This document shows, piece after piece, positions 4,052-35,887 of a stretch of 64,000 bases of DNA. The DNA comes from Marsupella aquatica. Lineage: Eukaryota; Plantae; Marchantiophyta. Made by a program: the position numbers and the translations under genes. The stretch is from assembly GCA_973895155.1 (NCBI GenBank), contig OZ316895.1, positions 18,898,508 through 18,962,507 on the forward strand, given 5' to 3'. The first letter of the stretch is position 1. Each line of letters begins with the position of its first letter. The notes beneath the pieces were generated by a model. It had not been told where the DNA came from and did no database searches. It was given only the letters and a program-made list of their open reading frames with translations.

Positions 4052-4584
4052 ATAGTGGATGGATATTTCTTCATTCTCATCCTGTATGATTGGCGGTAAT
4101 TGTAAGGATAAATGTGTTGATACAAGTGTCTTCTGTCGTGGTCTGGAGTCTTTGGAACCTGAAGGTCTGCCTCGCTTAGCCTTGGGAGTGAGGTCTGTGG
4201 CTCAAGTATCTGGTATATGAATTCTCGCAGGAGTATTGGCTGCATCTATATGTGATTTCGTTACATTTGTAGCATCATTAAATGCGTCAGGTATTTTCTC
4301 CATAATTTGATGGAGATTCAGAATGCGTTGCACTTCATCGTTTGTCAATTGAGTACGAGGATCATTCCAGAATGGATCCTTTGTTGTCCATTCTAATGTG
4401 TGTGTTGAGACAGGCTGTTTGGAGAGTTGTGCTGGAGTTCGAAGTGGTGGGAAGATTTCTTCACAGAATTTACAGTCCTGGTATCGAGCTCGAAACACAT
4501 CAGCAGTGGTGGGTTCAAGATACCTTATTATCGAGGGAGAGTCGTAGCCAACATAGATGCCACATCGACGCTGTGGTTCTAGAG
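4052..4584 (-). pseudogene. Copia pol integrase C-terminal/linker region, cut at 4584 by an insertion
   Basis: RRCGIYVGYDSPSIIRYLEP..DVF.ARY.DC.F.E..FP and DPRT...EVQRI..PDAFND..VTKSHI.AAN.PARI, typical of Bianca pol. Confidence 0.85.
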
Positions 4585-5520
4585 TGTAATTCACCCCTCT
4601 TAAGCTAAGCACAACACTCATCAAGGCAGAAGACTGATCCAAGTACATAATCCTAGCTTGGGTTTGCTGCTTCCCTGTGCTCCACCTCAACGACAGGCTC
4701 AGTCAGCCTTGACAGCCCAAGTCGCAATGGGAAGGATACAAAGATTGCTTGACTCCGGAATCAGGTTGGTAACTTGCAGGGTCAAGAGTCCACCTGGAAA
4801 AAGGACGTAGAGGAAGCTGCTGCCCGGGCCTAGAGGGGCGGAGCCAAGATACATCAATGTCCTCATGCCGGAGGTTAGCGACTTGAGGGAGAGGCCAAGG
4901 CCAACTAATGGACAAGTTGACCAACAACATCAGCAGGTTAGAAGAGGCATACCAGGATGCAGCAAAGGAGGTTGTCATGGCAAAGCAGGAGTTTCACTCA
5001 GACTTGAATGACCAGATCCCACATCTGAAGAAGGACAATGATTATTTGCGTGGTCAGCGGGACAGGCAGTCCAGTCTGGTAAGGGTGGGGCCAGCAAGCG
5101 TGCCAAGCATTAGGAGGTGCGATCAGTAGAGGGTAGGTAGAAGTAGTGGCGTCCATAAGACAGTAGCCGACATTGGTTAGCAACACTATTTTATCAGGCT
5201 GGCGTTATCTTTAGGACTTAGTTGGGAATCTAGACTGAGGCACACTGTTAGGACCATGACACTTAGGCTAGGGTTAGCCTTATCACCACTGGCTCAGGCC
5301 ACGAATCTTAGTTGATACTTAGTGCACCCCCACATAGAGGCAGGGGGAAGACTTTAGTTTTAGACTTGGGAATCCGTCGGATGTGTAGGGAGTCTTGGCC
5401 TTTGTAAATAGAGCGCACCAAGGGGTGGATGTACAATTAAGCTTGTTGGTCTAGTGCGTAGGGCTCCGGGCTCTGTTGTAGTGAGCTGTCCACCGTCACT
5501 GGGTCTGTTGATTCTGTTGA
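4585..5520. mobile_element. LTR-retroelement-derived insertion with a coiled-coil ORF remnant
   Basis: Starts TGTAAT exactly where copia homology stops. ORF 4908-5129 (DYLRGQRDR) resembles 45316-45420 (DRLRRQRDS). Right boundary is approximate. Confidence 0.45.
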
Positions 5521-9200: not shown

Positions 9201-11817
9201 TAAAAGATGTGAGTATATTGTTTACATACTATCCTGGATCAATTGATGACCATTAGATCTCCCTAGATTTAAGATTGATAACTAGATCTTGATTATGAGA
9301 TTTGTAGCCAAGTGACAAATTGGCTAAGCTAACAATTTACTCCAAAACTAAATGTAGAACATTTATTAGAGAGTGGAATCTAACAAATTTTAGCCACTAA
9401 AAATAGGTGCATTTTGAAGAATAAAGTCTTGTTTCCCACGGTTAGCCGTGCGGTAAAATCTTTTCGTTAAAGGCAGAACCCATATACGATTGTGAGGGAA
9501 ACACCATTACTCATCCGGTTCTTTTCCTCCACTGCTATACAATAATATTGTGTTGTACGAGGTCAAAGTAAAAACCCGTACCGTTAAGCAAAATTGCATG
9601 ATATGACTAGGCATGAAACGTTGGTTTGACTAGGATAACACCAGGTTGACTTGATTGAAAGAACATCTCGATCCCATCTAAGCTCAAAGATTTGGTAAGG
9701 GATACATTCCAACTTAGAGCATCTGAAGCGCACCATTTTGGCAATTTGCATACGCCAAAGAGAGCAACTGGATGTAATAAATAAATAAATAAATTGACTT
9801 GACTAGTGTGCACCCGCATCGATAGACACATGCGGCCTTGTGTTTGCTTTCTGAGGCCTCTATTTCTCAGCTACTGTAGATAGCACCCTGCCAAATAATT
9901 ACTCCATTTCATCCCCAGACACATCGATGGACCAAATGTTGGTCATGCATCACCACAGATCTTAAATAGATGTATATGGACCTAAATTCTCTTCTGGCAT
10001 CATAGAGGCCCGCATTGAGGAAGAAATTGCAGCAACCATGTAGATAGAAGCGCTACAAGCAAGTATACTGAATTATTTTGACAGGTTCTTGTAAATCAAA
10101 GTTTTCTTTGCATACATTTTGACAATCATGCACTAAAGTACTTGGCATTCAAACTCAACACGATTTATCTTTTGGCGCCATAGATGAAATGTCGAGCACG
10201 TCAAGAATTTTGAAATGAATGTAACATCGAGCTCAATAAAGTGCACAATGTTGAGACACAAAGTGCATCATGTGAAGGATTAATTTCATTGCATGGGAGT
10301 TGATAACATAGGATTCAGACCTTCTTTGGCCAGGTTCAAACGTGCGTGGTATGAGTATAGGGACCAGAGTTGAAGGAACAGATGGGGAAATTTTAAAACT
10401 TTGGGGCAACAATTTTTGGGTGATCGCCAACCAACATATTGCCAAAATGTGGGATGAGGACAAGGCCAGCAAACCGCTGCCCGCTGGAGATGCTCCTATG
10501 ACTCACTTTAATTGTGAGATCTTAATAATAGAGATTGTATAAAGTGGACGGATACAAAGGAAGAACACTAAAATATCACTTTTTATTCAAATTAGACATT
10601 TCTCTTCCTTCTAAATGCTCAATTCTTGCGGTTCCATAGAGTACTCGGTCCATACAAAATACTGACATCAATGTTGTGATTATGATATCAGTTTTCCCTA
10701 TAATTAGAACAAATTCTGCACATTGGTATATGGGGAAACCAATCTTACACTTTTATTTTCAAATTTTCTATGGAAATGTTCAACTACTTATGTGGTCTTG
10801 AGTAAGTGATTTACCAAGGGGATCTCCGTACCTCTCCTGGTCTCAAATAAGGAGAGAAATATATGTATTGTTTAGCCTCCACAGTGTTTGTAGTTGCAAC
10901 TGTCCACAACACATTTCAACACAAACTAATGCAATGTTTGTTGTTTATAAGCCACCTAAGTTTCAGTTTTCCCAAACATTGTATTTTATTAAGTGTTTTT
11001 CCAACTGAGTATCCTCAAAGCTCTAACAGGGAAGATGAACCCTGAACTGTTGAATAGCCTTCCCAGCAGAGTCTCTCCGCACCCCCCCACCCTCACCCAC
11101 AAGAAAACCACCAACTCCACCCAAAGCCAGGGATATTCCCTTAATTAGTTGCTACCATACAACTCGGGGGTCTCACTATATGGATGCCTCCCCATCACCT
11201 GCGACGTTTTTAGGCCTCGGATCCCCTAAAATGTAAGAAAAAAATAATTTTCAACCCCTATAAAGTTGGAATATTCTTGGAATATTCTAAAATTTGGTTA
11301 TATAATGCTAGGGGACTTTGGGCGGAGCTACGAGAACTGACGGCGCTGACGCTCTGTGGTAAAGTACTTGGGATTTTCTTTTTCGTGTTCCTTGATCGGG
11401 ACGTCTGGCAATGACTGAGGACTACAAGGGTGCTTCCGTTGCGGAAGTCGTTTATGAGATGATTAAGCTTTGCATCGCTAATTTCCTCCTCTGAGTGTTG
11501 AGTTATGTTCTCTTGATTAGGATTAGGGTTGATAACTTTCTCAAGCGTTCGTGGGACACGAGCAATACCGTGCTTCTATCTTGGGTGAGCGACTCTGCCG
11601 CTACTTTCTGGCCTTGATCCGCTCTCTAGTTTGGAGTGACAGTTCGGCTGTGCTGGTTTCCCACTTGAAGACCTGGAAAGTTACACTGTGCTTGTGGGAG
11701 CTTGTTTGAGCCCACAGCTTTTCTGGAACGACTGTTCAAACCTGCCTGGTGAGTTACTCTTTTGTTCCAATTGTTTTACAATTAATCTAACATTTCACTA
11801 ACTCTGGAGATTCTTTT

Positions 11818-11940
11818 GTCCAAAGTTGAAGAATGAAATTTCCAAAACATTCATTTCAAAAATCCAAAAACGTGATCTGAAATTTCCAAAACCCAAAATT
11901 GAAGTTTCCAAAAGCATACTTTTAAATTTCCAAAACCTAG
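11818..11940 (+). repeat. Degenerate ~21-bp-period array with TTCCAAAA core
   Basis: Five to six (t)tccaaaa units. The same kind of array lies at 25667-25800, just upstream of LINE ORF1. Confidence 0.7.
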
Positions 11941-12231
11941 TCCATTGGATGAATTACGAATTCAAAGGCAATGAAAAAAGTACTCCTTCAAATGAATGAC
12001 TGAAATTACTCTTTATAATAAATGAGGCACTAACGGTGGTGCCGTACATATATTTTGATATCCCTTCATGGGACTTCATTGTTGGGTTTTTTGCTAACTA
12101 CAACATCGTCTTCCGCTAAAGTGACTACAAAGTTGACTAGACAACTACACATATTTGACTAGACAGCTACACTAATCATATCAAGAATATCTGTGAACTA
12201 ACAAATGAAGGATAGCTTCGTCACATACACC

Positions 12232-12328
12232 TATTTCTCCTCCTTCCTAAACTCTGTCCATCTTCCAAAACCTCGTCACAGACACCCATTTCTCCTCCTT
12301 CCTAAATTCTGTCCATATTCCAAAACCC
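12232..12328 (+). repeat. ~40-bp imperfect direct repeat x2
   Basis: atttctcctccttcctaaa(c/t)tctgtccat(c/a)ttccaaaacc at 12232 and 12287. Confidence 0.85.
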
Positions 12329-12546
12329 CTGCCAAAGCCTCCCCTCTGCCGTTCCGCCATAGTCCAATTGTGTCCGCCTTCAAGCCAAAACAACTCCTCT
12401 TCTCCTCTCCTCTGCTATTGGGCCACACCGAAAGGAATGATTCCAGGGTTGCACATTGCCCTTTACCCCTCCCTCCAAATGGGGCTAATTCTAATCTATA
12501 TGAAACATATTCACTAAATTCTATCCGTAATCTGAAGTACTAAGTC

Positions 12547-13538
12547 CTACCTACTCTTTACTCCTGTGTTTATTCTACAGAATTTTGACGTTTGTCTGTG
12601 AACTTCGCTGACTACTTTCACAAACTCCCTAAAATTTGTGGCGAATAGCCCATGCGCAGCTCCTAGGCCTTTTGCGCATTGATTAGTTTCATGCTCAGTG
12701 AAGTTTTCCTTACGAGACATCCACAATATGATCTCTATGTGCCGAGGAGTAAGTTCTGAAGTTGTCAGTTGGAGAACATCATATTTGCGCACTGGCCACG
12801 ACGCAAAAAGTGAATTAGATTCCCCAAACCCCTGCAGTTGAGTGTATATCTGTTGATATTGTTTCCGGTCTTCAGCTAAATTCAGACTGGACCATTTTGG
12901 AGTGTTTCGCCACAAATACACACGCACATCTCTTGCTAAGGCCAACTCCTGCAACACTGGTTGAAGTTTGTTGCTTATAAACGTATCTGCAAGGAAACCA
13001 TTATTATTGCCGTTGAAGCAATCACAAAACAGCGTCAAGTATTCGGGGTTAAAGAAACTTCTATGAGGTAAATCATCAAGAAGGATGGTGTTGCTGTCAT
13101 TATAAGGTGCGTTTGTCCGATCTCCATTTAAAACGAGGTCATCCCAAATATTTTTCAGTAATTTCACAAAGCAATTTTTCCCTTTGTTTCTTCCAGCCCC
13201 ATAAAATATCCCAGTCGACAAGGCTTCCACTTCAGTTCTCACAAAGACAAATCGATGCTTCTCGTTGGGAAACACTTTCTCCAAAATCTCATGCACATTA
13301 TGATATACGGCACAGGTCCATATCCCCACATCAAATGTTTGAAGACACCATTCAACGAAGCGCCACATTCCCGGTCTTACATAGATGATTCTATTCTTTA
13401 GAAACAATGTCTCCCCGTTTTCAGTATTTATATCCCTAAGAGACTTTGCTCGCACTCTCGATGCACAATATGTAAGACGACATTCATGTCAAGTACGAGC
13501 AGTTTACGAGGAACGGTGTTTTGTATAATAGTTGCCAT
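12547..13538 (-). pseudogene. FCP1/NIF-family (HAD) phosphatase-like gene with one frameshift near the 5' end
   Basis: ATG at 13538 gives RKLLVLDMNVVL (HAD motif I variant). After a frameshift the 302-aa ORF has YVRPG...F...C...FDVGIWT, FVKLL..IW and YN.SNTILLDD.P.....NP. Confidence 0.8.
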
Positions 13539-13685
13539 ATCGTATGTTACAATATTTGCAGAGTGACGAAACAATAAATGAACATCAATATCGTAAAGTC
13601 AATGCAAGAGCGTAACATCAATTACGACGCATTGCAACGTATGGAAATCTGACGATAACCTATTCCACACGAGAATCGCGTAGAT

Positions 13686-14330
13686 CTAACTCAAATGGTG
13701 ACGATAAAGGCTTAGAATAATATTCCTCCTTTCAGCATCCATGTCCTTGGCTTTGAAATCAATAGGCTTCTCCCTACTCCGGTAATTGGCAAATTTCATG
13801 ACAAACACTCCGCAGTTGTAGTCATCGGTTTGAAGAGGGATGTCTTTACAACAATTTCTCGGCCATGACAAAGCATTCAGTTCCTTATGAGTTCTGAACA
13901 TGGCTTCATCATCTAGATATCTTGCTAGGTTCTCAAGAACTTTAGGGTTATCTCCGTGCAAAGAATCCAAATAGTCCAGTTTCCTAAGACCCATGTCGAT
14001 GACGACCAGTGCCCAATGGTTATGTCCCTCATGAATAGGGACCATGACCATCTCTACATCAGTTAAAAAGTACTCCAACTTCGAGGTCCAAGTTTGAACA
14101 TTGTCATACTTATATCCACCTCGAGCAAGTTCCGAATAGAACCAAGTATCAAAAATATGAACCTGCGAGAGGTCGGTACCCGCGGATTCTACTCTTGAAG
14201 CAATCAGACCAAAATAAGCATTCAGAATTTCAGAAGTTATCCATCGCTCGGGACCTAGACATGCCATCTCGCGATGAGTTATGACGCATCCACTGATTGT
14301 TGACAAAACTAAATCCTGATCCATGTCAGG
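13686..14330 (-). CDS. Ulp1/SENP-type C48 protease domain (C-terminus of the fusion gene)
   Basis: L.PERWITSEILNAY, FDTWFY, VPIH..HWALVVID, YLDSL and PLQTDDYNCGVFV. His-Asp-Cys triad and oxyanion Gln are all present. Confidence 0.93.
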   Translation of the reverse strand, partial: PDMDQDLVLSTISGCVITHREMACLGPERWITSEILNAYFGLIASRVESAGTDLSQVHIFDTWFYSELARGGYKYDNVQTWTSKLEYFLTDVEMVMVPIHEGHNHWALVVIDMGLRKLDYLDSLHGDNPKVLENLARYLDDEAMFRTHKELNALSWPRNCCKDIPLQTDDYNCGVFVMKFANYRSREKPIDFKAKDMDAERRNIILSLYRHHLS

Positions 14331-15009
14331 GTTGAGGCAAAAGTCTATTGCCACATCATTGTTCAGGTTGAGAGAAGTGGGAAAGAGTGAATTGGCACCT
14401 GCCTCATTTGCAGGCTCCATTGCAAGTTCCACAACAACATTATCGACATGTCCGATGACGGGCTCGACCTCGCATGGACCCTGATTTTCTGCCCAAGTGT
14501 GGGGAGGGGATGGATTGACGATGTTAACGGCCTCTTGAACTCCAGTGACAACCCGAAGGTAATCGGAAGGATCCTCAGACACAACTGGTGCAATATCATT
14601 TACAATTGAGTCCACCTCGCCAAACAACCCCACACGAGGCTCGCATAGAGATAGAGGTATCCCACCATCATTGTGTTCTTCCTCCACAAGAGGTCCTTTG
14701 GAACTCCCTAAGTGGTGGATTGGTCTTTGCGCCTCACCAAATTCCCATGGACGGCAAATCTGCTCCCCAACATTAATCATTCCAACACAAGGATCAGAAA
14801 ATCTGTTATCGTCTTGATGGGAGACTGTTCCAGTGACATGATAGTGCCTCCCTTCCTTTGTGCCACTTGCATTCAAGTTTTGCGTTGAGCTGCCCTCCCC
14901 TCTTGAAAGTTTCCATAAGGATTTTGCAAATTGTGCGACACCCTCCAACGAGTTGACATTCTCCGCATAAGCCGTGAGGTCCATCACATCCCCCCTTTCC
15001 GAACAAAAC

Positions 15010-15660
15010 GAGAAACATTCCCTTTCCAGAAGCAGGGCATTCTTTAAAACTTGCCCACCAGTAAAGAAGTCCAACACAATTTCCTCCTTCTCGGAAAATC
15101 AAAGAATGATTGCCTTGATAATTCTGCTGGGCTTAATGTTTGATGTAAATGTTCTGCCACCGGGGGTCCAGAAAGGAATGAGTCTATACAAGCCATCTCC
15201 AAGAGCGGATTTTTGCTTTGCTGCAACCTCTTCCTTGGAAAGGCCAGCATAATCTTCTTTGGCTGGTCTTGCCAGTTCAAGCTGATCCATGGATTCTGCC
15301 AAGAAATGACCTTGAAACCTCTGAAATATTTTTCCCAATCCGGTTCTCGTTCCTGGGAGACTCCAAGGAAAACAAGGGACTCAATAATACCAGACATGAA
15401 ATGCGATGAGCGGACTTCTTTCGCACTCTTCCAATAACTTCCATACTCCAGATGAGCATTATAACTGGAAGGTAGATCAGTGACAGCTTTAATAATTCTG
15501 GCCAGCAAGAGACCTGGGTGCACAAAAAACACGACAGTCACCAAGTCATTGGCGGGGACATTCATGACAGTCTTCAAGAAATTCAGCAGCTCCGATTGTG
15601 TCCAAGTATTTTGAATTGAGTGTGTCATATCGACAATAGCAAGTGATGCATTAATCCTCT
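15010..15660 (-). pseudogene. Beta-class DNA N6A/N4C methyltransferase-like domain, degenerate, within the fusion gene
   Basis: KPSRIIKAIIL*FSEKEEIVLDFFTGG.VLKNALLLERECF matches the KP..l...i...s..ge.VLD.F.GsG....A....R pattern (motifs X-I). It is in frame with Ulp1 across one TGA at 15099. Upstream ASLAIVDMTH (D at ~15630) sits at the expected DPPY position. Confidence 0.6.
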
Positions 15661-16689
15661 CCCTACAACTCGTCGAATCAAAAGGAGGCTCTGCGGAAGC
15701 AAGAAGATTCCCAGAGTAAAATATTCGATATGGATCCATTCTCTCACGGACAGTTCCCCCAAATTTCTTTTGGTAAATATTCCGTAACCTATTCTTCAAA
15801 GGTTCCGGCATATCGGATTTTGCAGAGACCTTGACTAAACTCTTGAAATAAGCATTGTCAACCATTGAGCAACATCTATCCAATTCTTCATTCGCGAAAT
15901 TAAACTTGCAGACCACGTCCGACCAAATGGCCCCAACATTGAAAACACTTTCATAGGTCTCACGGTAGAACCGCAAGATTGCACCTTTCAGCTTTTCAGT
16001 ATACTTGGCTTTCATGGCAAGATCAAACATTGAAGGTATATCTGTCCTTGCATGTCTTCTCTTCATCAAGAGAACCTCTCCCGATTGAACTTTATTCAAG
16101 ATAGAGGTAATCTCAGATTCTTGCGCCCCCTCAAATACCCTGAATGTCGTCCTAGTAAGTTGCTTTGCTTCCCTCTTCTTCCCAGTCATCTCTCCATTGT
16201 TGTCAGGTAAACTACCGGACAACCAACTATTGCAGACCGACATCCACAACTTATAGAGGCTCTCCGATGCAAAAAGGATCCAGTTGTATTTGCTGATGCT
16301 ACTCACTTTCAGTGTGACTTTGGCCAACCCTTTGTAATCCTGAAACCCAACAACAAATGGTAAGAACAACATAGTAAACCAAACCTTTGGAGAAGGTATC
16401 TTAGAGCCAAGCCTTGGATTCTACACGAGGCTCGTGTGGACCACAAAAGAAATTATTGTGTCAACAAGAACGGACCTGGAATTCCTGGGATTTTTGCCCT
16501 GACGGCACTGGCCGCACTAGTCGATTCATTTTCGAATATTGCATTCTCGCATGCCTGACCTGGTCAATGAATGGTGACGAGAAACGATGTGCTTCAGCTT
16601 GCAAGTTATTTGCATGTGAAATCTCAACCAACACCTTAACAGGTGTCGACCCCTTGAGAATTCTTGCATGACGGAATTTGAGGAGGTTG

Positions 16690-17000
16690 GTCGTTTCAAC
16701 TAGAGATGGTTGTGTCTGAGAACTCCAAATGATTTTCCTCGCGGCCATAGTCGAGTGTTGACCACTTATTGCAAAATATTGATACTCGGATAATTGTTTA
16801 GAATCAAAATCTCTGACGGAAAGATCAATAAGATTGTAAACACCATTAATCATCTTGTAAGGCACCAGATCTGTAGGCAAAGGTTCCTAACCGGCATTTG
16901 AAATCATCAACTGAACAAGATGGTTGACATGGTCTTCGTTGAGTAATTGCTCATTCATTTTTGCCGGCGGAGGATAGATATTCATCAAAGGAACAAGGAA
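16690..17000 (-). pseudogene. ParB/Srx-like N-terminal domain within the fusion gene
   Basis: VPLMNIYPPP...LLNEDHVNHLVQLM...G*EPLP..LVP...YFAISGQHSTMAARK. ORFs 16887-17792 and 16461-16880 are in frame across a single TAG. Confidence 0.6.
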
Positions 17001-18074
17001 CAATTTTGACAGCCCAAAAGAATACCAGCATCGGTTTTGTTGCAAAGTCTTTTCTGCCCTTTCAAGTCTGGCTTGATCAACGATTACTTTAGAACTCGAG
17101 TCAGCATTCATCTCTCCCATGTCATCGACGATATCCATCTCAATCATCTCCACTTTCTTACGTTGTTTCTTCAGGATTGGGACACCAGTTTCCGGTGCCT
17201 CTTCCGTTCCCTTAGTCTCTCTTTTGCGGCCCTTTCCACGCTTGGACTTCTTCGATCTTGTCACCCCATGGTCTGTGGATACGTCTTGCACTTGAGTATT
17301 GACCTTTTGAGATTTTGAGGGCACCTTCTGTTTCACAACAGCGGAAGGTGTTGTAGTGGAAGCCTTACGAGACAAATCCTTCTTAACGACACCTTTTGAT
17401 ATGGGTTTTGCTATCTCTTCCACAACTGCCTGCTTCTTTTGAGCCTTCTTCTGTTCTGGCATTTCGGCCGCTTTAATCTTCTTCTGTGGTTGTTTGGACT
17501 TTGCGATCTGTGGCCCTTTCACCTCAGTAGAGCTAGTGCGGATTTTTGCCTGAGGGACATTAGCTTTCCCAACCTTCTTTGGAAGAGCGATCTTTGAAGA
17601 CAATCTCTTCTTCTTGGAAGGAGGAGCGTCTTCTTCCATTCGCTTTCTTTTCTTTTTCTTCTGCACCTCCATCTCAGTCTCATAGACCTTTTCCTCGTCA
17701 GCCTCTGAGCCTCCCACTTCTGCGAGTTCTTCATCCATGGCTTGGATCTCATCTTCAAAGATCTCCTCTGTTCCAACCAACTCAGGACTCAAAGAGTCAC
17801 TGGGAACAATGCTCGGTTCATCTGATGTACCCTACGAACTTGATGATCCTAAATCTGAACTCGACGACGATCCAGGTTCCTGTACAACTTTGCTTGCTTT
17901 GAGAGGGGTATTTACAAACAACAGGAAACAGCAAATAGTAACAGAAAACAAAAACTGGTAATAGGAAAATGAGTGGTAATTTTTTTGAAAATTTTTTGAA
18001 AATTTTTTGGGGAAAAAAAAAGTTTTTTTTTTCAAAATTTTATTTATTTTTGCTAGCGTCCGGCGCTGGTAATG

Positions 18075-18992
18075 CTAGCACCCAAAGCTAGCCAAAAAAT
18101 GTTGTAACTTAGATTTTTTTGGAAAATGAGATTTTTTAGAAAATATTTTGACATGGTTAGTTTTCCTGGTAACAATAACTTTTTGCTGGTAACAGGAAAA
18201 ATTTTCCTGGTACCAGTAAACCTGTTTCCTGTTTACTGTCACGCGTGCCATACCCGCTTTGAGATTTGGGCCACCACCATGACGTCCGTGCCTTTTCTGA
18301 TTCAAATTGAAGACCTTCACTACAAGATGGATCGCAACCCAATGTTTAATCCTTTCCTCGTCAACTGGATCTGGGAAAGCAATTTCCGGAACTATCTCGA
18401 TCTCCTGCCGGAGTTCATCTTCCGGTAAAGATAGAGACATAACGTAAACAACATGCCTGGTTGCAGAAAGGTGAGATTGATAATCTTCGAAGAACAAAAA
18501 ACTAACCCTTCAGAAAGGTGAGATTGATAATCTTCGAAGAACAAAAAACTAACCCTTCCCAACCCTGAAACAATATCCTCAGCAGTGAGAATATTATCTG
18601 GATCCATGAACGATGAGAGGATGGATCAAAAAATCCTAAGGACGTTATGTTCATTGTCGCATCATTTGGCTCAAGACAATGTGCGCAACAATATTGTTCA
18701 ACGGGAAGAGAGAACTCTCTATATCCACAATTAACGCGGTCCTCCACCGTCACTGTCAGAAAGACCTTCCCCTTCTGGTGCTCTAGTGCTTTTGAAATCC
18801 TACAATCGGCAAGCACACCCAAGTACTTCCAAAACCTCTTGGGCTTGGCAATAATGATCCCCCGCAACCAACACCTCCAAGCATCACCCTCCATACGCAT
18901 TTCAAAAGACCATGAATTGACAATTCGATTTTGGTGGCTAACATTGCTTTGACATAACGGCTGCGGTAGGCGCGGGTGGCTGAAACAAACAT
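18075..18992 (-). pseudogene. Unknown cargo gene with CxxC, disrupted
   Basis: Overlapping ORF pieces 18502-18900, 18392-18607 and 18075-18497 join once a frameshift and the 47-bp duplication are removed. Contains YCCAHC. Confidence 0.45.
18464..18557 (+). repeat. Perfect 47-bp tandem duplication
   Basis: cagaaaggtgagattgataatcttcgaagaacaaaaaactaaccctt at 18464-18510 and 18511-18557. Confidence 0.95.
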
Positions 18993-19246
18993 ACGGGAAT
19001 CCTAGGAAAGAACCAATACGAAAGATTTAGAACAGAGTCCAAGATGTCAAAACAAATGCCAAGATTTTATTATTCACAAAAATGGACAATCCGTCCAGAA
19101 AACAACTCATTCGACCAAAATGGACTTTGCCCGCTCGACTACCATCTTCTAAAGTTGGGGCACATATTCATCTGGGTGCCTCGATCTCCAACTAAACAAC
19201 TTGTCTAGTACTAAGTCTTGATAGATGAGTTCTAGGGAAATGTCTC

Positions 19247-19696
19247 CTAGACTGCTTCCTTCTTCAGCCTCTTGATAGTCTGGAGGTGGCCTTCCTCCTG
19301 GGCCGTCATGATAATCAGCTTCTTTGTGAGCGTCTGTATCTGACTCTCACGGAGCTCATCAAGCTTGGCGGCCTCCTTCATCACTAGGCACAACTCCTGA
19401 CATGTCTGAAGATGGTTTCGTTGAGCTTGAAAATATCTTCCAGCATAATCCTTTCTAATCGAACTAATCTCTTCATCTTTCTCCTTCATAGTTTCTTGCA
19501 GGGTCTCAAGTTCCTCGAGGACATCCTCAGTCATTTGGGACTCCTTCTCATGTTTATCTTTGATTGATTTCAGATGTTTCAAGGCATTGTCAATTTGGCC
19601 TTCAAGGTAACAAATGAGCCTCAGGTGAGTAACATGCTCTACACGAGAGTCGCGTGAAAGCAAATGGAAATGATATTTACTCCAATGCATTTTCAT
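19247..19696 (-). CDS. Coiled-coil cargo ORF, probably the last exon of a spliced gene starting near 20065
   Basis: E/K/L-rich heptads. GT/AG-like signals and T-rich tracts occur on the minus strand between 19620 and 20005. Confidence 0.45.
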   Translation of the reverse strand: MKMHWSKYHFHLLSRDSRVEHVTHLRLICYLEGQIDNALKHLKSIKDKHEKESQMTEDVLEELETLQETMKEKDEEISSIRKDYAGRYFQAQRNHLQTCQELCLVMKEAAKLDELRESQIQTLTKKLIIMTAQEEGHLQTIKRLKKEAV

Positions 19697-20668
19697 ACGG
19701 AAGCACTGATGGGATGAGGATTGTCCGGGATCTACACGAGAGTCGCATGAAGATAGAGATAAAAAACGTCTAAAATTGATTCAGAGAAAAAGACTGAGGG
19801 TTACCTTCAAGCATGATCTGTGCGTTCACGGCATAGTACTGGAGCTCATCTACACAAGTCTCATGTAGAAAACTTAGTACTGGGTATCGCATAACACAAA
19901 TAAATCTACACGAGACTCGTGTGGAAGGGACCGCTGAAATTTGAAATAAAAACAAACAACGAAAAGAAAAACTAAAGATCTACACGACTATCGTGTGGAA
20001 ATACCTTCAACTCTGGTACGACCGACATCTCCCGGACCTCCAATTTGGATAGATTCGCCATGAGACATCTTCGCACGTGTGAAACAATTTGCAAAATATG
20101 GACGGAATTGAGCAGAACTCAGAGGGAGAGACAAATGAGCGAAAGGGCGGAGAATGAGCGAGAGGGCAAAGATGAAGGAATGAGTAAATGAGCGAATCTC
20201 CTTGAAATATATACCTGACACGAGGAATGGGCGAGCGTGAAAATGGGCCAGCATAAAGCGTGAAGACATCATTAAGAGTGCCGCCAAAAATATCGACGAA
20301 TCTTACTAGGCGACAATCATGCAGAGCTATCAGCCTGTCACATTCGAGCAGATGTGCTTATTCTTTTGTCATTATCTGATGTCATTATCTGACATGATTA
20401 ATTGCGCCGCCAAAATATCGGAAAATCGGACCACACGACGATCTAGCAGAGCGGCCACCCTATCATTTTTGACCATTATATTCGGGATTTCTATCTGGGA
20501 ATGGTATTTATCGATTAGTTGTCCTGATTCTCTAGTCATTCTCTCGCCAGACATGAATGGTTCCGAGGACAAGTTCTGGCACGAGTGGTTTCGAGGACAG
20601 GTTTTGGCACAGGTTTGAGTCCAAGGACTGCTTCTGGGCGCCCAATCGGTACGTCCCTTCTGGGATTC

Positions 20669-20748
20669 CATTCTTGTGACTGTCTCATTCTTGTGACTGT
20701 CTCATTCCTGTGACTGTCTCCCCGGTCAGTGTCTCATTCCTGTCACTC
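20669..20748 (+). repeat. 17-bp tandem repeat (cattc(t/c)tgtgactgtct) x3 plus a partial copy
   Basis: Read directly from the sequence. Confidence 0.9.
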
Positions 20749-21027
20749 TTGGAGAATGTTTTTTTAGGACAATTATCTGTACCTCATTTCTTTCAAAAGT
20801 TCTACTAAATAGGGGTACTGTAATAGGATATTTAGGATTTCAAAGAGGAATTAGACCTCATTTCTTCCATAACTGCCCTAATTTTAGAATTAGACTTCAT
20901 TTCTTCTTAATTGAGGATGACTGAGGGTCCTGGCATGGGTTATGTCTTGGTCTTGAGGAATTGGACTTCAATTGTAACACAATTTATCAGTTGGGTGGTT
21001 CCTTAATGTGATATTACATGGATTGGG

Positions 21028-21116
21028 GATTTGTACCGTGTTGGAATTTGTACCCTAATGGAATTTGTACACTAGTGGACCTTTTACCCTGTTGAAATTT
21101 GTACCTTGTTGGACTT
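21028..21116 (+). repeat. 17-bp-period degenerate tandem repeat (aatttgtaccNtgttgg) x5
   Basis: Read directly from the sequence. Confidence 0.85.
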
Positions 21117-21406
21117 TCCTTCTCTCTTAGAGTGAAGCATCAAATAATAGTGGGTCCTTTCCTTACTTCTTGTGGGACTTTTTGTCATAAATGCATATGA
21201 TTGTGATAATTCCGTTACTTTTGGGAGATGTTTAGACCTAAGCTGATGCTCTACACGAGGCTCGCATAGCCATCAAACCTCCTTGTGTTTCCTTCCACTA
21301 CCTGTATGCGTTAATAATTCTACACGAGCCTCGTGTTGAGGGATACTAACGTGCATGTTTTATTCTGGTTCACCAAACCTTTTCCTGCTGGTGAATAATT
21401 CCCGTC

Positions 21407-24172
21407 TTGTGTCCACACGAGAGTCGTGTCGAAGTTACTGTTAACCTTGAATCAGTCAAGAATATGTTTTCCCCCGGGGATCGAGTTAATCTCTTATTGA
21501 ATGATGAACCGGTTGCGGGTGGGACGGTTTTCAGCATTACTCCCTCGGACTCTTGTCACAACATTCTGATTGGCGAGCACAGAATCAATGTTTCTGTTGA
21601 GGATGATTCTTCCACCTTACTGAGTTACCTTATCCAAACGCAGGGGCGGACCTGGTCGGCGAAAGCTTAAATTCAGTAATTCTGTGGGATCGATCCAACG
21701 TCAGGTTTGCGGAAAGCTAGCGTCCGGTTGATCCAGGTGACAACCAAGAGGAGATTCCTCTAGAACAGGAAGCAGGTTTTGGGGAGCAAGATGCCACGGG
21801 AGACACTGTCCATAGTCAGGACAATGTTCTCTTGAGCAAGGATCGACCTGAGCGATCAAAGTAGGTGGTTCAAGAAGTTTGCTTTGCTTTACGGAAACGA
21901 TGATGAGACACTACTGGCTTGAGGGTGTATCACGAATCCGCACCCTCAAGCATTGATTAACAATGAGAGAGTTGGAGATGATCATGTTGGGATCAATATT
22001 CTCACACTGGCTGCCGACAACAACATCTCAAAGATGACGTTCCCTTATTTTGTTGAGGGAACGCCTTGCACAATCAAATGGCCTTTGCGGAGAACTCGGA
22101 TCGAGCATGGAAAGCAATTGTTAAGCAATCTATTGGATCAAAATGAATTCCTGAATCCTGAGCGAGCAATTGTATCATATGTTAAACCAAAGCGAGGCTA
22201 TAATAATCAACGTCGCAACCCGCAGGCTCCTAAGGAGAAGGAAAGGAAGAAGATTCATAGAAGGCGTAACAGAAAGAAGACTCGGGAATCTATTGATGTT
22301 GTTTTCCAGGTTGAGTGCTGCACAAAGAATTGTTGTAGGAGACAACAATGGGAAGTGGTCAATCAGATTAGAGATGAATTTTATGGTCTCTCTCACGCCG
22401 ATCAACAGACGTACGTTTTGAACCATCTACACGTGAGGGATACAAAAACTATAGAGGTCGGGATGATTATTTTTCGTGGGACACATGTCTGTAAAGAAGG
22501 GTTTTGGACCATCCATGGTTTCTCCAAAGGAACCTTCTATTCAATCTATAGTCACTATCGGAATGGGGCAAAAGTTGGCGTTCATGGCAACCAAGGATCA
22601 ATGAAAACCAAAGACTACATCACGTTGTTTGTGGAGTCTATACGAAGTGTATTCCAGAAATGTGTAGAGCATATGCCTCATCTCCATAAAATTGGAGAGT
22701 CTGGAAAGCAGGAGGTCGTGTAAAGGGTTCCCGTAAGCTACGAGAGGAAAGATGTTTATGAAGAGGCTTGCAAGCTTAACAAGAATCTTGGAGCTTCTTC
22801 TCCTGTCATTGCTACTTTCTACAAGATATTGGAGAAAAAGTTTCCCAATTTTCAGTTTCCTAATCGAAGCAATTTTGCAAAATGCGATCTCTGTACTACA
22901 ATCAAAGAGACTCTTCGAGGCGAGAAGAGACAAGATTTTTTTCTTGAAATCAAGGCCAAAAGAGAACGTCATATGCTGGAACAACAGTCCCGGAGAAGCA
23001 TGTATTATGCAGCCAAACTGGCAGCAGATCAAGAGCCAAAGAAGTATCTCTCGATGATTCATGACAAAATGGATCAACCCAAAACAGGGATACCAAAAAT
23101 GACTTCAACTCTTAAAAGTCAAGCGGGTAAATCAATTCCGTTACCGATGACATTGATTGGAATGCTCACGCATGGACGGGATCCCGGAATCTATGCCCAT
23201 TTTGCACTTGGTGGATTGTGGGCGAGTGATCCTGATTTCACACTCTCATTTCTTTCAAAGTTGTTCAGGGATCTTGAGTCATTCTTTGGGGATAAGACTG
23301 AAGACTTATCGCTGAGGAGCACAGACGTGTCTGATCCTATTTTTGTTGTGCTTTTAGATCGTTGGGCTTTTGAGATTGGCTATCTAGAAAGGAAGAATGT
23401 GGATTTTGACCATTTTAAAGGACTTGAAAATGAGGCTCCGCGCGAGCCTCGCATGGAACCCTCGTCTTCCGATTCCTTTTGACCACTTCCACGCTATTTG
23501 CACCTCCAACTTGACAATTCAAGGAAGGACAATAAGAATCAGACCGTGATCGCATATTGTAGTGAGCTTGTTCTTCGAGGAGTGTTTGAGTCTGTTACAC
23601 TCTCCTTCCTGATGGTTGGTCATACTCATGAGGACGTTGACGCATTCTTTTCATGAGTAGGAATTCGGATTTATAATCATGAGTTAACAACTTTCTTTAG
23701 TTTGATGGCTGAAGTTTGGGAGTGTGAGAAGAAGCATCCAGTCCCAAGATTCATCCGGGAGGTTGCCGGATACAAAGTTTATGTTTCTTCTTATGTGAAG
23801 AAGATCCAAGGTCAGTTGGCCCCTATGCAGTTCTTGTTTTCAATGAAAGAAAATACACCTGTTTATCAATATCGGGAGAAAATTGATTCGCCGTGGCTAC
23901 CTGCTAAAGGTCACTCCATTTGGAAAACTATTGGAAAGGACTTTGTGTTTCCCTCCAGAAATCCTTTTTCAAAACAAATGGAGTCAACTCATAAGCGAGC
24001 GAGTGACATTCTCGAATACCGCATTCATTACGTTTCATGGCTAAAAGCCGCCTAGAAAGATGTCACATCAGAGGGATATCATTTTTGATCCCCGAAAATT
24101 GAGTATTGGGAAAATGTCATCAGGGTCTTCGAAGGTTCCCTATGCTCTGCACCTAATCTGGAGAGGGACTAT
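21407..24172 (+). pseudogene. Sola1-like (DUF7869-type) DDD transposase with multiple stops and frameshifts
   Basis: ECCTKNCC, VCKEGFWTIHG.S, FAKCDLC, MIHDKMDQ.K, LHLQLDNS.KDNKN (~23500-23540) and SFLMVGHTHEDVDAFFS (~23603-23653). Confidence 0.8.
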
Positions 24173-24620
24173 TGTGACGCCAATGACATGGTCCTTATTT
24201 TGTAATCTGATTAAGTAGGTTGCTGTATGCAAGGAGTAGCTATTGATATTGCATAACAATTAGCAAGATGGCAAGAATAAGGGCAATCATGGCGTTAAGA
24301 GTAGGGAAATAAAAGCTATATCGCGGGTGGTCGACGACCATATCTCTTTCAATATGTCACCAAATCCGGATCTGTAAAGAGCATTGGAAAGATCTGGTCA
24401 AGGCGAGTAAAATCGATATAAAACACTCGAGAAATGGAGGTGTATTAAGAAAGATACGGCCTGATTAGTGTGATGGGTTAACTTGTGGCCGGAATTAGCG
24501 GATTCGGCTTCAGTTTCGGGTTAACCCAAGCTCGACCACGGCTTAGCTTATGTGAGCACGGCTTCAGCTTAGCTCAGGTCAGCACGGCTTCAGCTTAGCT
24601 TAGGTAAGCACGTAGATCAA
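24173..24620. mobile_element. LTR-like fragment truncating the transposase, with short gcacggcttcagcttagct repeats
   Basis: Abrupt TGTGACG junction; repeats at 24537-24612. Confidence 0.45.
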
Positions 24621-25846
24621 CCCTAAACCCAAATCTCTTTTTGCGCTAGTCTCGCGTAGAGCATTGAGGTCCTTCTGTTCCTCTGCGATTGTCTTACCCA
24701 CATCTCGGTGCCAGCTTCCTTGGGTAGTTTGGTTGGAGTCATCTTCCCAACAGATTTTGAATTCAGTTTTGGCATCGATGGCATTGGTTTGAGGGATGCC
24801 TCTTCCAACATCAACTATTTTTGTGAATAATGAAAAGTTTTCTTTTTCAAAATCGTGTGCACGTTGTCAATCACTTACATGGTATCTTCAGCTCTGATGT
24901 ATCTTGTTTTTTTGTGTCACCTCTTTCCTAAAACTTTGGAGGACACAATTATCGCGTAGAGTACACCGAGAAAGTAGACTTGATTTCAAGTTACCCAATA
25001 GAGCTCAGCTTAGCGCAGATTCCTTGTCCGACGGCTGTCTAATCCTTGGGCTCTGGAAGTCCCCCCCTTTGGGCCAAGCTTCTGACCCAGAGGCCTTCCT
25101 CTTGAGATTTTGTTAACATTGTGAATCATCTATGGGGTGATTAGAGAGGTTGAGTGATTCACAGAATTGGTCTTTGTCGCTCCTCACTCAGAGAGTTGAC
25201 ACTCTCGAGCGTAGAATATCAGAATTGGAAAGGCGTGGCCCATCCCAGGTCGTGAAAATTAAAATGGGCGAAGGTGAAAGGTCAAAAGTGTTTGGCAAAA
25301 AAACATCTGACAGCAAACCTGCCCCCCGGTTGGTATCCCAGGCCTTGGAGTTTCAGGCTTCGGGGGAAGATATCCGGAATTTTATAGAAAGAAAGGGCTC
25401 TATAGAAAGTCCCTTGTCATACGCGGAAAGATACGTGATATCTTTGATAGTTAGACCGTTGACCCATCAAATCAAGGAATTTATATTATGGAAGAAAAGT
25501 TCAATATAAAAAGGGCTCTAGCACATTTGATTTTAAATTCCTTCATCTTTGCATCTGTCGATAATAAGGACAAGCTCCACAAAGATTTGCACTATATAAA
25601 ACGAGCACTCGATAGGATGAAAGAGAAAATTGATAGTTTCAATGGACAAGGTGCCCTTTGTGTTCATTCCAAAACTCTAATCTGAAAATTCCAAAACTCT
25701 AAACTAAATATTCCAAAACCTCATTTTAGAAATTCCAAAACCCCTTCTCTAAATTTCCAAAAAGCACTTTTCAATATTCCATTCTTGGGAGAATTTTCCA
25801 GAATTAGTGAAATGTCTGATATTAGCATTATACTTACCTTCGGATT

Positions 25847-27822
25847 ATGGCTACCATGAATTGTGGTCGTGGAGCTATTAGGACCCACTCGAATTCTAGG
25901 AGTGATGCCACTTGGCGGGATGCTGAGGGTGGGGCTGGACATTGGGCAAACCCTGCTTCCCCACGTGTTATGACGACCTCTGCGCGGATTGACAAGCAGG
26001 CGGAAAACTCTTCGGGAACGGGATTTACGGGGCACTACAAGGGCCAGGATGTTAGGGCGATTTGTGACTTCCCTACGGTGGCACAAATCGCACCCTCTAC
26101 CAAGGTGTCTGAGCCGGTCAACTTTGCGACTAATATGCAAAGCTGGTTTGGACTACGTCCTTCTGGAGACAATGTGGATGGCTTCTCCCGGTGGAATACT
26201 GATTTACACCATGATCATCGGGTGATGGATGCTCTGGAAGACAGAATCTCGGCTCCACTCAAGGAACATTTCCGTGATGACATTGGAGAGCGCAGTGAGG
26301 GAGACACTTTGATGTTGGATCACTCTGATGGAGGCACACCTTCCTGGCATTGTAGAATGACTCGGGCTGAAGTTCCTGCTCCTTCGGCTTCCGAACGGAG
26401 GACTGCTAAATTGAACCGGCCAGCAAAGGCAGAAGCTTGCATCCCCCTCCTACGTAGAATTGCAGATCTTTCTGTCCAGGATTGGCCCTCTAAGTTACAC
26501 ACAACCATTGAATGGTCTCTTGATGAAGCTGCGGATACTATCACTGAGCTCTATAATTGCACAATGATGTGCTATTTTACTGACAGGACTCCTATGCTGC
26601 CTACCTTCAAATTCTGGGTCAACAAAACCTTTGTGGAAGAAATGCACTGGCCTGTGACACAAGTGAAATTTGTTGGTAAGAATTTTTATTTGGTTTCCTT
26701 CAGAAATCCAGAGCATTGAGACTTTGCCTTGGCTGGTGCTCCCTGGTTCCTTGAACGGAAATTTGTTTTCACCTTTCTGTGGGACCCTTCTTTCGATATT
26801 AGGAGTGAGTCCCATACGTTACTCCCTGTCTAGATTGAAATACCTTTTCAAGCACTTGTGTTGGAACCCTGCAGGAGAAAGCTGGCTGCTTCCCTGGGGG
26901 CATTCTTCACTACATTCAAGGGGATGAATTAAGCTCCTAACCTCATGACAGGGCTTGTGTCTTGTGGGACACCCAGCGTGAAGTACCTCTAAGCGTGGAG
27001 GTATTGATTAAAACTGGACTCTCTATTTGGCAGCCGGTGATTTTTAAAAATATCCCCTTTCACTGCTTTCATTGTGGTAAGAAAGGACATCTGGCCAGTG
27101 GATGTCAAGAATTTGATGAAACTCCAACTGCTACTGATACTCCCATTGCGGATGTTCCGTCTATTCCTATTGCCACAACCATTGTACCTATTCCAGCTAC
27201 ACTTGAGAATGTTCAGCCTAACTCTGCTCCTCCGTCTACCGCTGAACCAACACTCCCTACCTCACAAGCTCCAGCACTAGTTCTGGTGCACTCGCCCATC
27301 GTGACTTCTCATCCAGTAACCCCTTCTACGTCACCAATTCCTCCTCTACCTGATGCAGACAAAGAGAATTCACTTTTTGGTGGTCCCTTCACTATGGTTG
27401 ACGCTAACATTGTGGTGACTGCGAGGGACTTTGCGGACTCCTGCTTCAGTGTTGAAGCTCTTGATGCTACTGAGCTGGTGCTCTCTAACAGAGATCTTAT
27501 CCCTCTGGTGATTCAAGAACTACAAGTGGCCCCGCAGACCTTAATCCCACTCAACTCTGGTTCTATCTCCCTTGAAAATCAGGTTGTTTTTACTGTTGAG
27601 CAGCCCACGTTGCTGCTGCCGATCACCGGCGCTAGCAAATCTAAGGTGATGGCTAATGTGGATGGTGATCGATCTGCTTCTGATTTACCATCGGATATGG
27701 AGCTATCTGACTATGAGGGCTATGTCTCCCGCAGTGCTATAAAGAAGGATTGGGCTCGGAAGCTGGCGAAGCGTTCTCCTGTCGAGGAGAAGATGGATTA
27801 CTCCAAAGAGGAGACTTTCTAG
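25847..27822 (+). pseudogene. LINE ORF1 (DUF4283/RRM-like domain plus CCHC zinc knuckle)
   Basis: VKFVGKNFYLVSFRNPEH*..AL...PW......F...W.P.F and WQPVIFKNIPFHCFHCGKKGHLASGC. Internal stops at 26717, 26830 and 26938. Confidence 0.88.
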
Positions 27823-28034
27823 GGATCATAAAAAGGGACACCATGCAGAGATTGTTGAGGATCTGAATTCTCCAGTGACCCAATCTATTTTACCGGCTGA
27901 GAGCCCGCTGATGGGTCCGGTTGCTTCTACCCTGGTGGCGGCTGGCTCCCTCCTCCCCACCGGTTGAGGGGATCTGCTTGACAGTTTTTTACTCCGCTGA
28001 CCTGCTACGGTGCTAGGTGCACAAGTTTGCACCC

Positions 28035-31000: not shown

Positions 31001-31965
31001 GATTTTCCAACTTGTCTGATCAACTCTTATCTGAGGTGATGCAAACTTTTGGCTGCTTGGAAATCCGTCAGATCTGTGATTTCTGGTCTATATCCAATGC
31101 TACCTGGATTCCCATGTTCGACAGGATTGGGAGTACGAGGAACCTTTCGATGGAGGGTCGAAGGACTTGCCTGTCGTTCACCTGCACCATCCACAACTCA
31201 ACTTACTTTGGCTGCATTGTTGAGACCCACGTTGCTCAGTGGAGATGGGCTGATCAGAACCTGTTGCTAAAGCACTTTAGACTTCCCAATCTACGTGCCT
31301 ATGAGATGATTCGTCCAAAGGGATCGGATTATGAGAGGATGAACCGCATATGGGGTAAGACCTGCTCTGAAGCTGAATGGTCTAATATGTGGCAAGCCAT
31401 GTGGAAGTCTGACCTCTCTACTTGAGCTAAAGTCTTTCTCTGGCATATCCTGATGCAAGGACTATTTTTTGGCTCCAGAGCCCTGAGAATTGGAAAATCT
31501 TCTGGATGTTGCACTCTTTGTTGCGGAGTCCTAGAAACCATCCCCCACATTTTTTCTAGCTGCAGGCATGCAGCCAGATGTTGGCCCCTTGTCCATGGAT
31601 GGCTGAATGGTCTCATTTGTGATAATGAGATGGACTTAGTAGGATTGATACTCTCTACCATGTTGAGAACACCACCATCTACCCTCCGTTTCTTTGTGCT
31701 TTATCAAGTGTTGTGGAATCTTTGGCTGGCACGGAATATTCAAAATTTTGACTTGACACAAAAGAGGAGCTTCAATCAGGTTCTTGTTATCTCTGAAACA
31801 CTGGATCATCTCACTGTGGTTGCGGAAGCTACTAGCCCTTCAAGAAGACTTGTTCGGCTTTCTGGTGCTTTGGAAATCCTAGGGCAGGAACGCAATAGAA
31901 TGATGAGAGATAGCATTGTTAGTGTTGAGTCACATTGCAGACGGGTCTTGACCCGTTCTGGTTGA
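28035..31965 (+). pseudogene. LINE ORF2 (AP endonuclease, RT, zf-RVT)
   Basis: ASWNVCGL, LALQE.K, LYAPN, GDF, LDRFY, SDH; KAPGVDG, WRPLTML, LDFEKAFDRV, GVRQGCPLSPLLF, FADD, RYLG; CTLC...ETIPHIF..C. Many stops and frameshifts. Confidence 0.95.
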
Positions 31966-34805: not shown

Positions 34806-35887
34806 ATTGTTCCCAGGGCCATAGTGGTGGACCTAGCCACCCAACGCCCTCACCAATCCTAGCACCCATGCCTAAGTGCCCTTGGTGCATAAATGCCTCA
34901 TGAAACTCCTTGGGCAAGCAACTTGATGCCTTTTGCACCCTGGCGACCACTCCCATACAAAGCCGCACTTGCTCCCTAACATGACCGTTGCTTGACGGTC
35001 CTCATTACCTACACAAGCAACCAAGCTCTTCGATAACTAACCCAAAGGATCTAGACATTCCAAGACTAGCATCCTAACTCAAGCTCAATAGACTTGGTAA
35101 GTAGGTCCGCGAATAGACCCTCCCTGGCCCACTTGGCCTTGTCATAGGTTGAAGCCAATGTTGACACCCACTATTCATCCAGAACAGCCCCTCTTTGGGT
35201 GCAGCCCGTGCTCCATCGCATTCCTATTTGTCACTGATTGACCACCCTTCCCCCAAGACATGCTCATGACCCAAATAGCGTAACTTGTCCTAAAACATTG
35301 ATGTTTTGGGGAACATGAGGATGAGAGGTGATGATGGGCTTCTTGTTTTTGGAGCTTTGACATGGAGTTGATTGATTTTGAGTCTAGTTTGAGATTTAGT
35401 CCTTGGAGGGATAAGACAAAAGTGAAATGAAGGAGAGTAGTTTTGCTTAGCCTAATGTGACACCGCCAACATGGCTGGTAATGAGTAATCCGGCCCAATC
35501 CGTGCTGAGCACGCACGCTACGGACTTAGTAGTCCGTAGTTATTAGAATAGTGACACTAAAATAGTTAGTAATCATGAATAGGACAAGATTAGTCAATAA
35601 AGAGCATTCACGCTTGGGCTGGTACCACCGGGTTACAAGTGCATTATGGACGTCTACCTCGGGTCCGTATAATGGATTGAGTAGGCAGCTCGCTGACACG
35701 GTCTAATCCGGACCTACGGAGTGGCCAGTACATTGCAAGCGTGAAGGGCTCGGCCTATCAGAGAGGAGGAGGGGCCGATCAGCCGACAACTCCTCAGGGT
35801 ATAAAAGGCGGACCATTCCCTTGCTTAGTATCGATGATTCACTTCTTGCGCCAGCTTTGATCCCAGCTTGTCCATTCGCTCCTCAAT

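Follow-up and report, generated by a model that had tools for sequence, protein, structure and literature searches.

A predicted beta-class pseudo-methyltransferase carried by a DNA transposon of the liverwort Marsupella aquatica

Introduction

The window analysed here, a stretch of 64,000 nucleotides from the liverwort Marsupella aquatica, contains a segment in which a first-pass annotation saw a prokaryote-type amino-methyltransferase with a decayed catalytic motif, carried by a transposon, probably catalytically dead and possibly serving as a DNA- or SAM-binding module. The same annotation proposed that such elements could have been vehicles for the 4mC writers of early land plants. This raises the questions of whether the segment has a methyltransferase fold, whether the missing motif reflects the decay of one copy or a property of a whole family, and what such a protein could do for a transposon.

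Results

The segment is carried by a 14-kb DNA transposon

The segment lies within a multicopy cut-and-paste DNA transposon of approximately 14 kb (11785..25820) with a DDE transposase, so the carriage by a transposon that had been claimed is confirmed by its termini, its transposase and its many copies. The element is bounded by 24-nt terminal inverted repeats at 11785..11808 (plus) and 25797..25820 (minus), which are 88% complementary. ATTA flanks both outer sides, an alternative C...G end in an AT target is possible, the terminus can be placed only to within a few bases, and the length of the target duplication is ambiguous. Subterminal 22-bp repeats with the TTCCAAAAC core are found inside the left end at 11818..11938 (plus) and, in the same orientation, inside the right end at 25667..25787 (plus). 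The transposase remnant at 21923..24055 (plus) matches DUF7869 (Pfam PF25273, E=3.9e-20), shows the motifs CDLC, HDKMDQ, LQLDNSRKDNKN and GHTHEDVDAFFS, and is interrupted by stops at 22721, 23480 and 23654. DUF7869-type motifs and 4-bp duplications are linked to the Sola superfamily, to which the element may belong. On the minus strand at 12547..13570 the element carries a NIF/FCP1-like HAD phosphatase gene (Pfam PF03031, E=6.4e-9), frameshifted near 13461, in which sister contigs have a 4-base insertion. The fern homologue P0078 continues into the NIF domain with the same domain order as in the window.

The contigs from all four public runs span the element in full (30 of 30 bins) and represent many divergent copies, and in run X2 three contigs diverge from the window just before 11792. 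Two nested high-copy repeats are present in the element: a short MITE-like insertion at 17905..18255, with approximately 8-fold higher depth and loose ends on both sides, which is absent from sister copies as seen from contigs that skip 360 bases, and a second repeat at 24173..24600, with approximately 30-fold higher depth, loose ends and two relatives in other parts of the window. An internal inverted pair (19054/24817) was set aside as a chance product of AT-rich sequence. Two further small frames inside the element, a coiled-coil-like one at 19247-19780 (minus) that overlaps two palindromes (see below) and one at 25141-25509 (plus), have no confident family assignment.

The remaining part of the window consists of other transposons. 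A Copia-type retrotransposon pol remnant is found at 2090-4702 (minus; RVT_2, E=1.6e-42), and a LINE with a zinc-knuckle ORF1 and a reverse transcriptase ORF2 (RVT_1, E=1.5e-15) begins just right of the transposon (25826-31965, plus) and is followed by a second LINE fragment at 32980-34055 (plus). A Myb/SANT gene at 46265-47254 (plus) faces a DDE_Tnp_4 gene at 49831-50916 (minus), forming a PIF/Harbinger-type element whose inverted arms are located near 45600 and 52815. We also noted a 1.7-kb repeat in two copies up to 97% alike (35887-37642 and 55667-57346), to which the nested insert at 24334-24438 is related, a duplicated coding segment (34236-34800 and 40954-41519, 71-78% alike), purine-rich long frames at 40763-44098 with no confident Pfam family, and a short tandem array of GGTCCTT-type units at 53592-53695.

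The segment is predicted to encode a beta-class methyltransferase fold

Matches to Pfam and to the family profile, Foldseek and VIA comparisons, and sister contigs place the domain at 14960..15740 on the minus strand, slightly beyond the interval first noted (15010..15660). Reading the minus strand from 15134, where the KP of motif X is located, gives KPSRIIKAIIL*FSEKEEIVLDFFTGGQVLKNALLLERECF, with a TGA stop at 15099-15101 within the domain and motif I (DFFTGG) at 15071-15054. The motif IV site, LAIVDMTH (15643-15620), precedes the motif-I Asp by 187 codons and is read in a different frame, and a one-base frameshift near 15317 sits between it and the motif X-I part. KP, FTGG and LAIVDMTH were all where the first-pass annotation had placed them. 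Having two stops and a frameshift, the window copy is a pseudogene.

In the Pfam search that had been proposed as a check, the C-terminal piece of the window matched N6_N4_Mtase (PF01555) with E=5.4e-5 over profile positions 164-208 of 221, its 23.7 bits being under the curated cut-off of 26.7, which one of 29 homologues, the intact P0029, cleared with 29.2 bits. The family profile matched M.RsrI (E=3.2e-7) and, far more weakly, M1.MboII (0.47), with no match to N4CMT or M.PvuII at E<=10, and a single-sequence PDB search with the C-terminal piece gave ubiquitin noise only.

The fold was demonstrated on intact homologues approximately 30% identical to the window protein, not on the window's own broken protein. 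For the AlphaFold model of the homologue P0007 (mean pLDDT 79.9) the top Foldseek matches were beta-class amino-methyltransferases (RsrI 3.2e-8, N4CMT 4.5e-6). In VIA all 11 best matches were beta-class enzymes with Z of 13.9-17.0, among them CcrM (Z 17.0, rmsd 4.3 over 227), RsrI, PvuII and N4CMT (8s9n, Z 14.8), compared with Z 9-11 for METTL3-14 chains and at most 5.6 for unrelated folds. The model of a second homologue gave the same outcome. In both intact homologues motif IV is N-terminal to motifs X-I within a Rossmann-type fold, and the motif positions in the window agree, which confirms the order IV then X-I that had been put forward as the mark of the beta class. On these models the window segment is predicted to encode a beta-class amino-methyltransferase fold, as had been claimed from the sequence, with the reservation that the prediction is for homologues of about 30% identity. 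The outcome that had been named as a refutation, the absence of a predicted Rossmann-type fold, therefore did not arise.

The catalytic motif is absent throughout a family that appears to be under selection

The family was defined as 71 cluster representatives, 68 of them relatives at E<=0.001 among 1.84 billion representatives searched and 3 from further searches. Among 30 representatives checked for their source, 7 bear an organism name, namely Calypogeia fissa (3), Riccia sorocarpa (3) and Adiantum nelumboides (1); homologues in these three species include CAM6082538.1, KAL3682925.1, KAL3700175.1 and MCO5596946.1. None of the 71 contains [DNST]PP[YFW], and the window itself reads LAIVDMTH. 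The first residue of motif IV is D in 30 and E in 1 of the 32 representatives covering it, and the single row that the pattern left unparsed reads D in a separate alignment; the residues after this Asp are mostly F-S/T/A-R or similar. Motif I reads D-x-F/Y-S-G/S-G in all 11 representatives covering it, F-x-G-x-G in none, and its residues are nearly invariant despite a domain identity of 15-54% among 9 family members. Because PPY is absent family-wide at such identities, its loss is old.

It had been suggested that sister elements be inspected for a retained [DS]PP[YFW]; they read LAIVDMTH instead, the sole listed change there being synonymous. In all four runs some sister-copy contigs have the extra base at 15317 and a sense codon in place of the TGA, which bears out the (R) that the first-pass annotation had put at that stop. 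Since sister copies are open at the lesions and yet keep LAIVDMTH, the lesions are recent and the motif loss is not. Sister-copy differences within 14990-15700 fall at third codon positions in 24 of 40 cases and at second positions in 3, and 23 of the 40 were scored synonymous (one being a stop-to-stop artefact) against 22-30% expected, giving omega values of approximately 0.2-0.3 among sister copies for this segment. The substitution pattern indicates that purifying selection has acted on the domain even though the catalytic motif is missing. The missing PPY thus reads as an old family trait of a selected pseudo-enzyme, and "decayed" is apt only in that this particular copy is additionally a pseudogene. 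With PPY missing in 71 of 71 representatives and motif I rewritten, the catalytic death suspected for this copy very probably extends to the whole family.

The positions that contact SAM were mapped onto the family by motif via the RsrI alignment. As reported in PMC10406627, N4CMT holds the SAM ribose through an Asp and a His and the carboxylate through Ser/Thr that follow motif I. Over the 14 rows of the alignment, which include redundant ones, the position of the motif II acid is non-acidic (S/V/A/T) throughout, the column after it is D in 8, and the His of HP..KP is replaced by Asn in 10; the GSGT loop is shortened to SGG, without the Thr. Because several SAM-contact positions are changed, SAM binding by the family appears doubtful, which weakens the idea of a SAM-binding module.

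Relation to DPPY enzymes and to the 4mC writers

In profile-profile alignment with 20 DPP enzymes the motif-IV Asp of the family aligns to the D of DPPY, and the DPP profile fits better than a profile of 19 SPP enzymes (probability 91 vs 49 in global, score 58 vs 48 in local alignment). A mixed SPP/DPP template places the Asp one residue before the Ser with low confidence, and the Asp-to-Asp register is therefore based on the DPP-only alignment together with the strand pattern. Two trees were calculated, the first including 39 prokaryotic enzymes and the second 26, almost all of a single phylum; the second omitted 3 long plant rows and 13 loci. The plant sequences come out in both trees as a single long-branched clade placed among the DPP enzymes, with a nearest neighbour that differs between the trees. 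The grouping with phage ParB-fused enzymes seen in the first tree was gone in the second, and we regard it as long branches meeting. By AU test, neither a clade of the plant and SPPY sequences (p=0.21) nor one of the plant and phage ParB-fused sequences (p=0.26) was rejected. A phylogeny with bacterial, rotifer and liverwort enzymes had been called for, and its bacterial part thus places the family among DPP enzymes while leaving a common clade with SPPY enzymes unrejected. We favour a DPPY ancestry on these alignments and trees, and see no link between the family and the SPPY 4mC writers N4CMT and MpDN4MT1, the trees being calculated without the sequences of these two.

Relatives were sought in several collections. 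Word-indexed protein searches, a method nearly blind to this family, gave 0, 5 and 2 matches. None of 164 candidates was related in a locus scan of viral contigs, and two metagenome locus scans yielded none among 107 and 2 among 258, these two being a bacterial DPPF enzyme and one family contig of 1.8 kb without neighbour genes. A genome-contig scan returned one type III Mod-like gene only, tblastn against phages and plasmids gave weak motif X-I matches only (E 8e-3 or worse), and the family profile had weak matches, again restricted to motif X-I, in 4 of 201 genomes from a single phylum.

The accessory gene and the dispersed palindromes

The domain is part of a larger gene on the minus strand, with the order ParB-like (possibly), helical, pseudo-methyltransferase and Ulp1, and with a predicted intron. 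Exon 1 (16476..17831), conserved in 5 homologues, encodes an acidic, lysine-rich low-complexity N-terminus followed by a putative ParB/Srx-like domain with an ISGQHS motif (16500-17060), recognised by pattern only, and carries an in-frame TAG at 16887-16889. The predicted phase-0 GT-AG intron of 136 nt (16340..16475) contains one palindrome, and its junction reads ...FQ/DYK, much like FQDW in the homologue P0011. A conserved helical domain of approximately 200 residues (15741..16339), for which the best structural match reached only Z 5.2, precedes the pseudo-methyltransferase. In frame with the end of the latter is a Ulp1/C48 SUMO-protease domain at 13689..14250 (Pfam PF02902, E=2e-33), in which the His, Asp, Gln and Cys motifs are present (motifs at 14024, 14003 and 13832). 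Several homologues are long open frames with the ParB-like N-terminal part, the helical domain and the methyltransferase-like domain, and most have a small C-terminal domain instead of Ulp1. The C-termini of P0002, P0003, P0029, P0071, P0072, P0079 and P0081 show a small conserved domain, HY.W..GP..G ... EYGSF, which is well predicted in the P0072 model (residues 937-990).

The ParB-like part has S-G-x-H-S in place of G-x-x-R, and its order of strands and helices matches at a pLDDT of approximately 45. Pfam, PHROG, PDB-profile and hhalign comparisons with canonical and phage-fused ParB gave no support for homology, the scores being within those of shuffled controls. The second-best viral structural match in Foldseek was the phage ParB+methyltransferase protein A0A6J5MMM5, spanning 576 columns. 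We therefore treat the ParB label as a possible, pattern-based lead.

Twelve dispersed copies of a 21-bp palindrome, TCTACACGAGNCTCGTGTAGA, are found between 13664 and 23457, starting at 13664, 14629, 16420, 19638, 19731, 19849, 19905, 19979, 21250, 21319, 21412 and 23437, with a weaker thirteenth at 24640. Searching the window for TCTACACGAGNCTCGTGTAGA with up to 3 mismatches gave 10 matches against 0.02 expected, and a scan with a matrix built from 10 of these same sites gave 12 sites above 21 bits, all within the element, with 5.2 as the highest score outside it and 16.4 as the highest in 20 shuffles. The palindromes are located in the intron, in intergenic DNA and in coding frames, and they mark the accessory gene and the transposase as belonging to a single unit. 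The palindrome is a likely binding site, and it is quite possible, short of probable, that the accessory protein binds it through any one of its domains.

Discussion

The reading that best fits these data, and which we favour with some reserve, is that the domain is an old, selected pseudo-methyltransferase which serves the transposon as a non-catalytic accessory module and likely binds the element's own DNA. A prokaryotic DPPY-type enzyme would have been captured by the transposon lineage before its liverwort and fern members diverged, or would have spread between them, and would have lost its chemistry and kept a dimeric DNA-binding scaffold. Beta-class methyltransferases are described as dimers with DNA-reading loops (PMC10406627). 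A dimer of the protein may then attach to the 21-bp palindromes and so carry the SUMO protease, perhaps together with the NIF phosphatase, to the element; this could counter silencing or aid assembly of the transposition complex, as VANC for VANDAL. That the domain is kept for nucleic-acid binding or scaffolding is probable; anti-silencing as its purpose is suggested by analogy and is less likely than not. A more elaborate version, in which a phage-type ParB-methylase fusion was captured and a dimer of the dead methylase or of the ParB-like domain on a dozen parS-like palindromes delivers a silencing-lifting SUMO protease, appears improbable; under it, a component of bacterial restriction-modification would have been reused in a eukaryote as an anti-silencing reader.

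Several observations speak against the reading as an accessory DNA-binding module. The transposase or a host factor could be what binds the palindromes, the Ulp1 fusion is not general, most homologues ending otherwise, and the ParB assignment failed the profile tests. For homologues in other species the locus scans did not show a transposon setting, giving one 1.8-kb contig without neighbours. The observed/expected ratio of CpG is 0.69 in the element versus 0.53 outside, which is still depleted and would suggest that any escape of the element from methylation is partial at best. Finally, the kept Asp and motif I could mean altered chemistry.

This last point leads to the alternative that the protein is an active methyltransferase with a rewritten site (Asp plus F-x-R), which marks the palindromes or RNA and thereby protects or licenses the element. 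The Asp kept in 30 of 32 representatives, a motif I nearly invariant at 15-54% identity and the retention of the entire beta-class fold are what such an enzyme would predict; yet PPY is required in N4CMT, where changing SPPY to APPA abolishes activity according to PMC8885841, and the loss of the motif II acid in 14 of 14 rows, the His of HP..KP mostly being Asn and the reduction of GSGT to SGG make activity quite improbable. The proposal that the transposons carry, or carried, active 4mC writers and were the source of the Marchantia DN4MT1 enzymes fares worse still. The plant group is shared, N4CMT has the same beta-class fold (8s9n, Z 14.8) and the AU test leaves a plant+SPPY clade unrejected (p=0.21), but SPPY or any other PPY is found in 0 of 71 representatives, the catalytic position is Asp and not Ser, the profile matches RsrI and not N4CMT or PvuII, the DPP profile fits better than the SPP profile and both trees place the family among DPP enzymes. 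N4CMT has the motif SPPY (PMC8885841), and MpDN4MT1 carries TSPPY (as given in bioRxiv 2021.02.12.428880) and is described in PMC8885841 without extra domains. As a vehicle for the land-plant 4mC writers the family is accordingly very improbable.

If catalysis is set aside, the domain could instead be a structural spacer, or a decoy for host methylation readers, with the palindromes serving the transposase. DDE transposases commonly bind internal repeats, and 7 of the 12 palindromes (19638-21432) are located upstream of the transposase gene. The separate 22-bp subterminal repeats would suit the transposase, however, an odd-length perfect palindrome would suit a symmetric dimer, and surface motifs as strongly conserved as these point to a role beyond that of a spacer, which makes this alternative rather unlikely. 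A functionless bacterial gene captured and left to neutral decay is a description true of the window copy only, with its two stops and frameshift. For the family it is largely refuted by lesions that are not in all sister copies, by the omega estimate and by long open homologues across several lineages, and we give it hardly any credence.

Among known systems the M.RsrI group (PF01555) shares the KP and DFF motifs, and M.RsrI, CcrM, M1.MboII and M.PvuII share the fold and the order IV...X-I-II (Z 15-17, rmsd approximately 4 A over 200-227 residues). The family differs from the M.RsrI group in being without PPY and the motif II acid, in its shortened motif I loop and in being part of an intron-containing, multidomain eukaryotic transposon gene. 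The bdelloid N4CMT and Marchantia MpDN4MT1a/b are likewise eukaryotic, horizontally gained beta-class folds (8s9n, Z 14.8), but they are active host enzymes with SPPY, whereas the family has an Asp without PPY, is transposon-borne and has no profile match to N4CMT. Inactive methyltransferase domains are described for DIRS1 retrotransposons and for METTL14 (Iyer et al. 2016, PMC4738411). The DIRS1 domain resembles ours as a family-wide dead amino-methyltransferase (N6A) inside a transposon protein, and differs as a PCIF1-derived (group 2) domain of a retroelement, whereas ours is of the permuted beta class and is carried by a DDE DNA transposon of seed-free plants. METTL14/Kar4 also combine a permuted methyltransferase fold with a disrupted active site and are kept as scaffolds; they are host RNA-methylation subunits with an active partner, and no active partner was seen in the element. 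VANC of the Mutator-like Arabidopsis VANDAL elements binds to short motifs scattered over the element that encodes it and relieves silencing (PMC5735166), a parallel in that an accessory protein is combined with many short motifs within the element. The VANC motifs are non-palindromic tandem units of 8-9 bp with anti-silencing shown (PMC5735166), whereas those in the window are 21-bp palindromes, and the likeness would be functional only. Phage fusions of ParB and DNA methylase have the same arrangement of a (here possible) ParB-like domain N-terminal to a beta methyltransferase, but keep DPPY, whereas a helical domain of 200 residues separates the two parts in the family, and the link in the trees is unstable.

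A description of the family was not found in full-text searches of the openly available literature, in which DUF7869 returned 0 papers. In the supplement of PMC4738411, which mentions Selaginella or Physcomitrella 14 times, the visibly labelled mentions are MT-A70 or AlkB proteins. Transposon-borne pseudo-methyltransferases are already known from DIRS1; one of the beta class in a DDE transposon of seed-free plants was not found described.

If the reading as a selected, non-catalytic accessory module is right, a prokaryotic beta-class methyltransferase would have entered eukaryotes on one more independent occasion and would be maintained by transposons as a pseudo-enzyme in liverworts and ferns, and one protein with one 21-bp palindrome would form a pair for self-recognition or silencing resistance of a transposon outside the flowering plants. 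Matches to N6_N4_Mtase in bryophyte and fern genomes need then not mean that 4mC or 6mA is written there.
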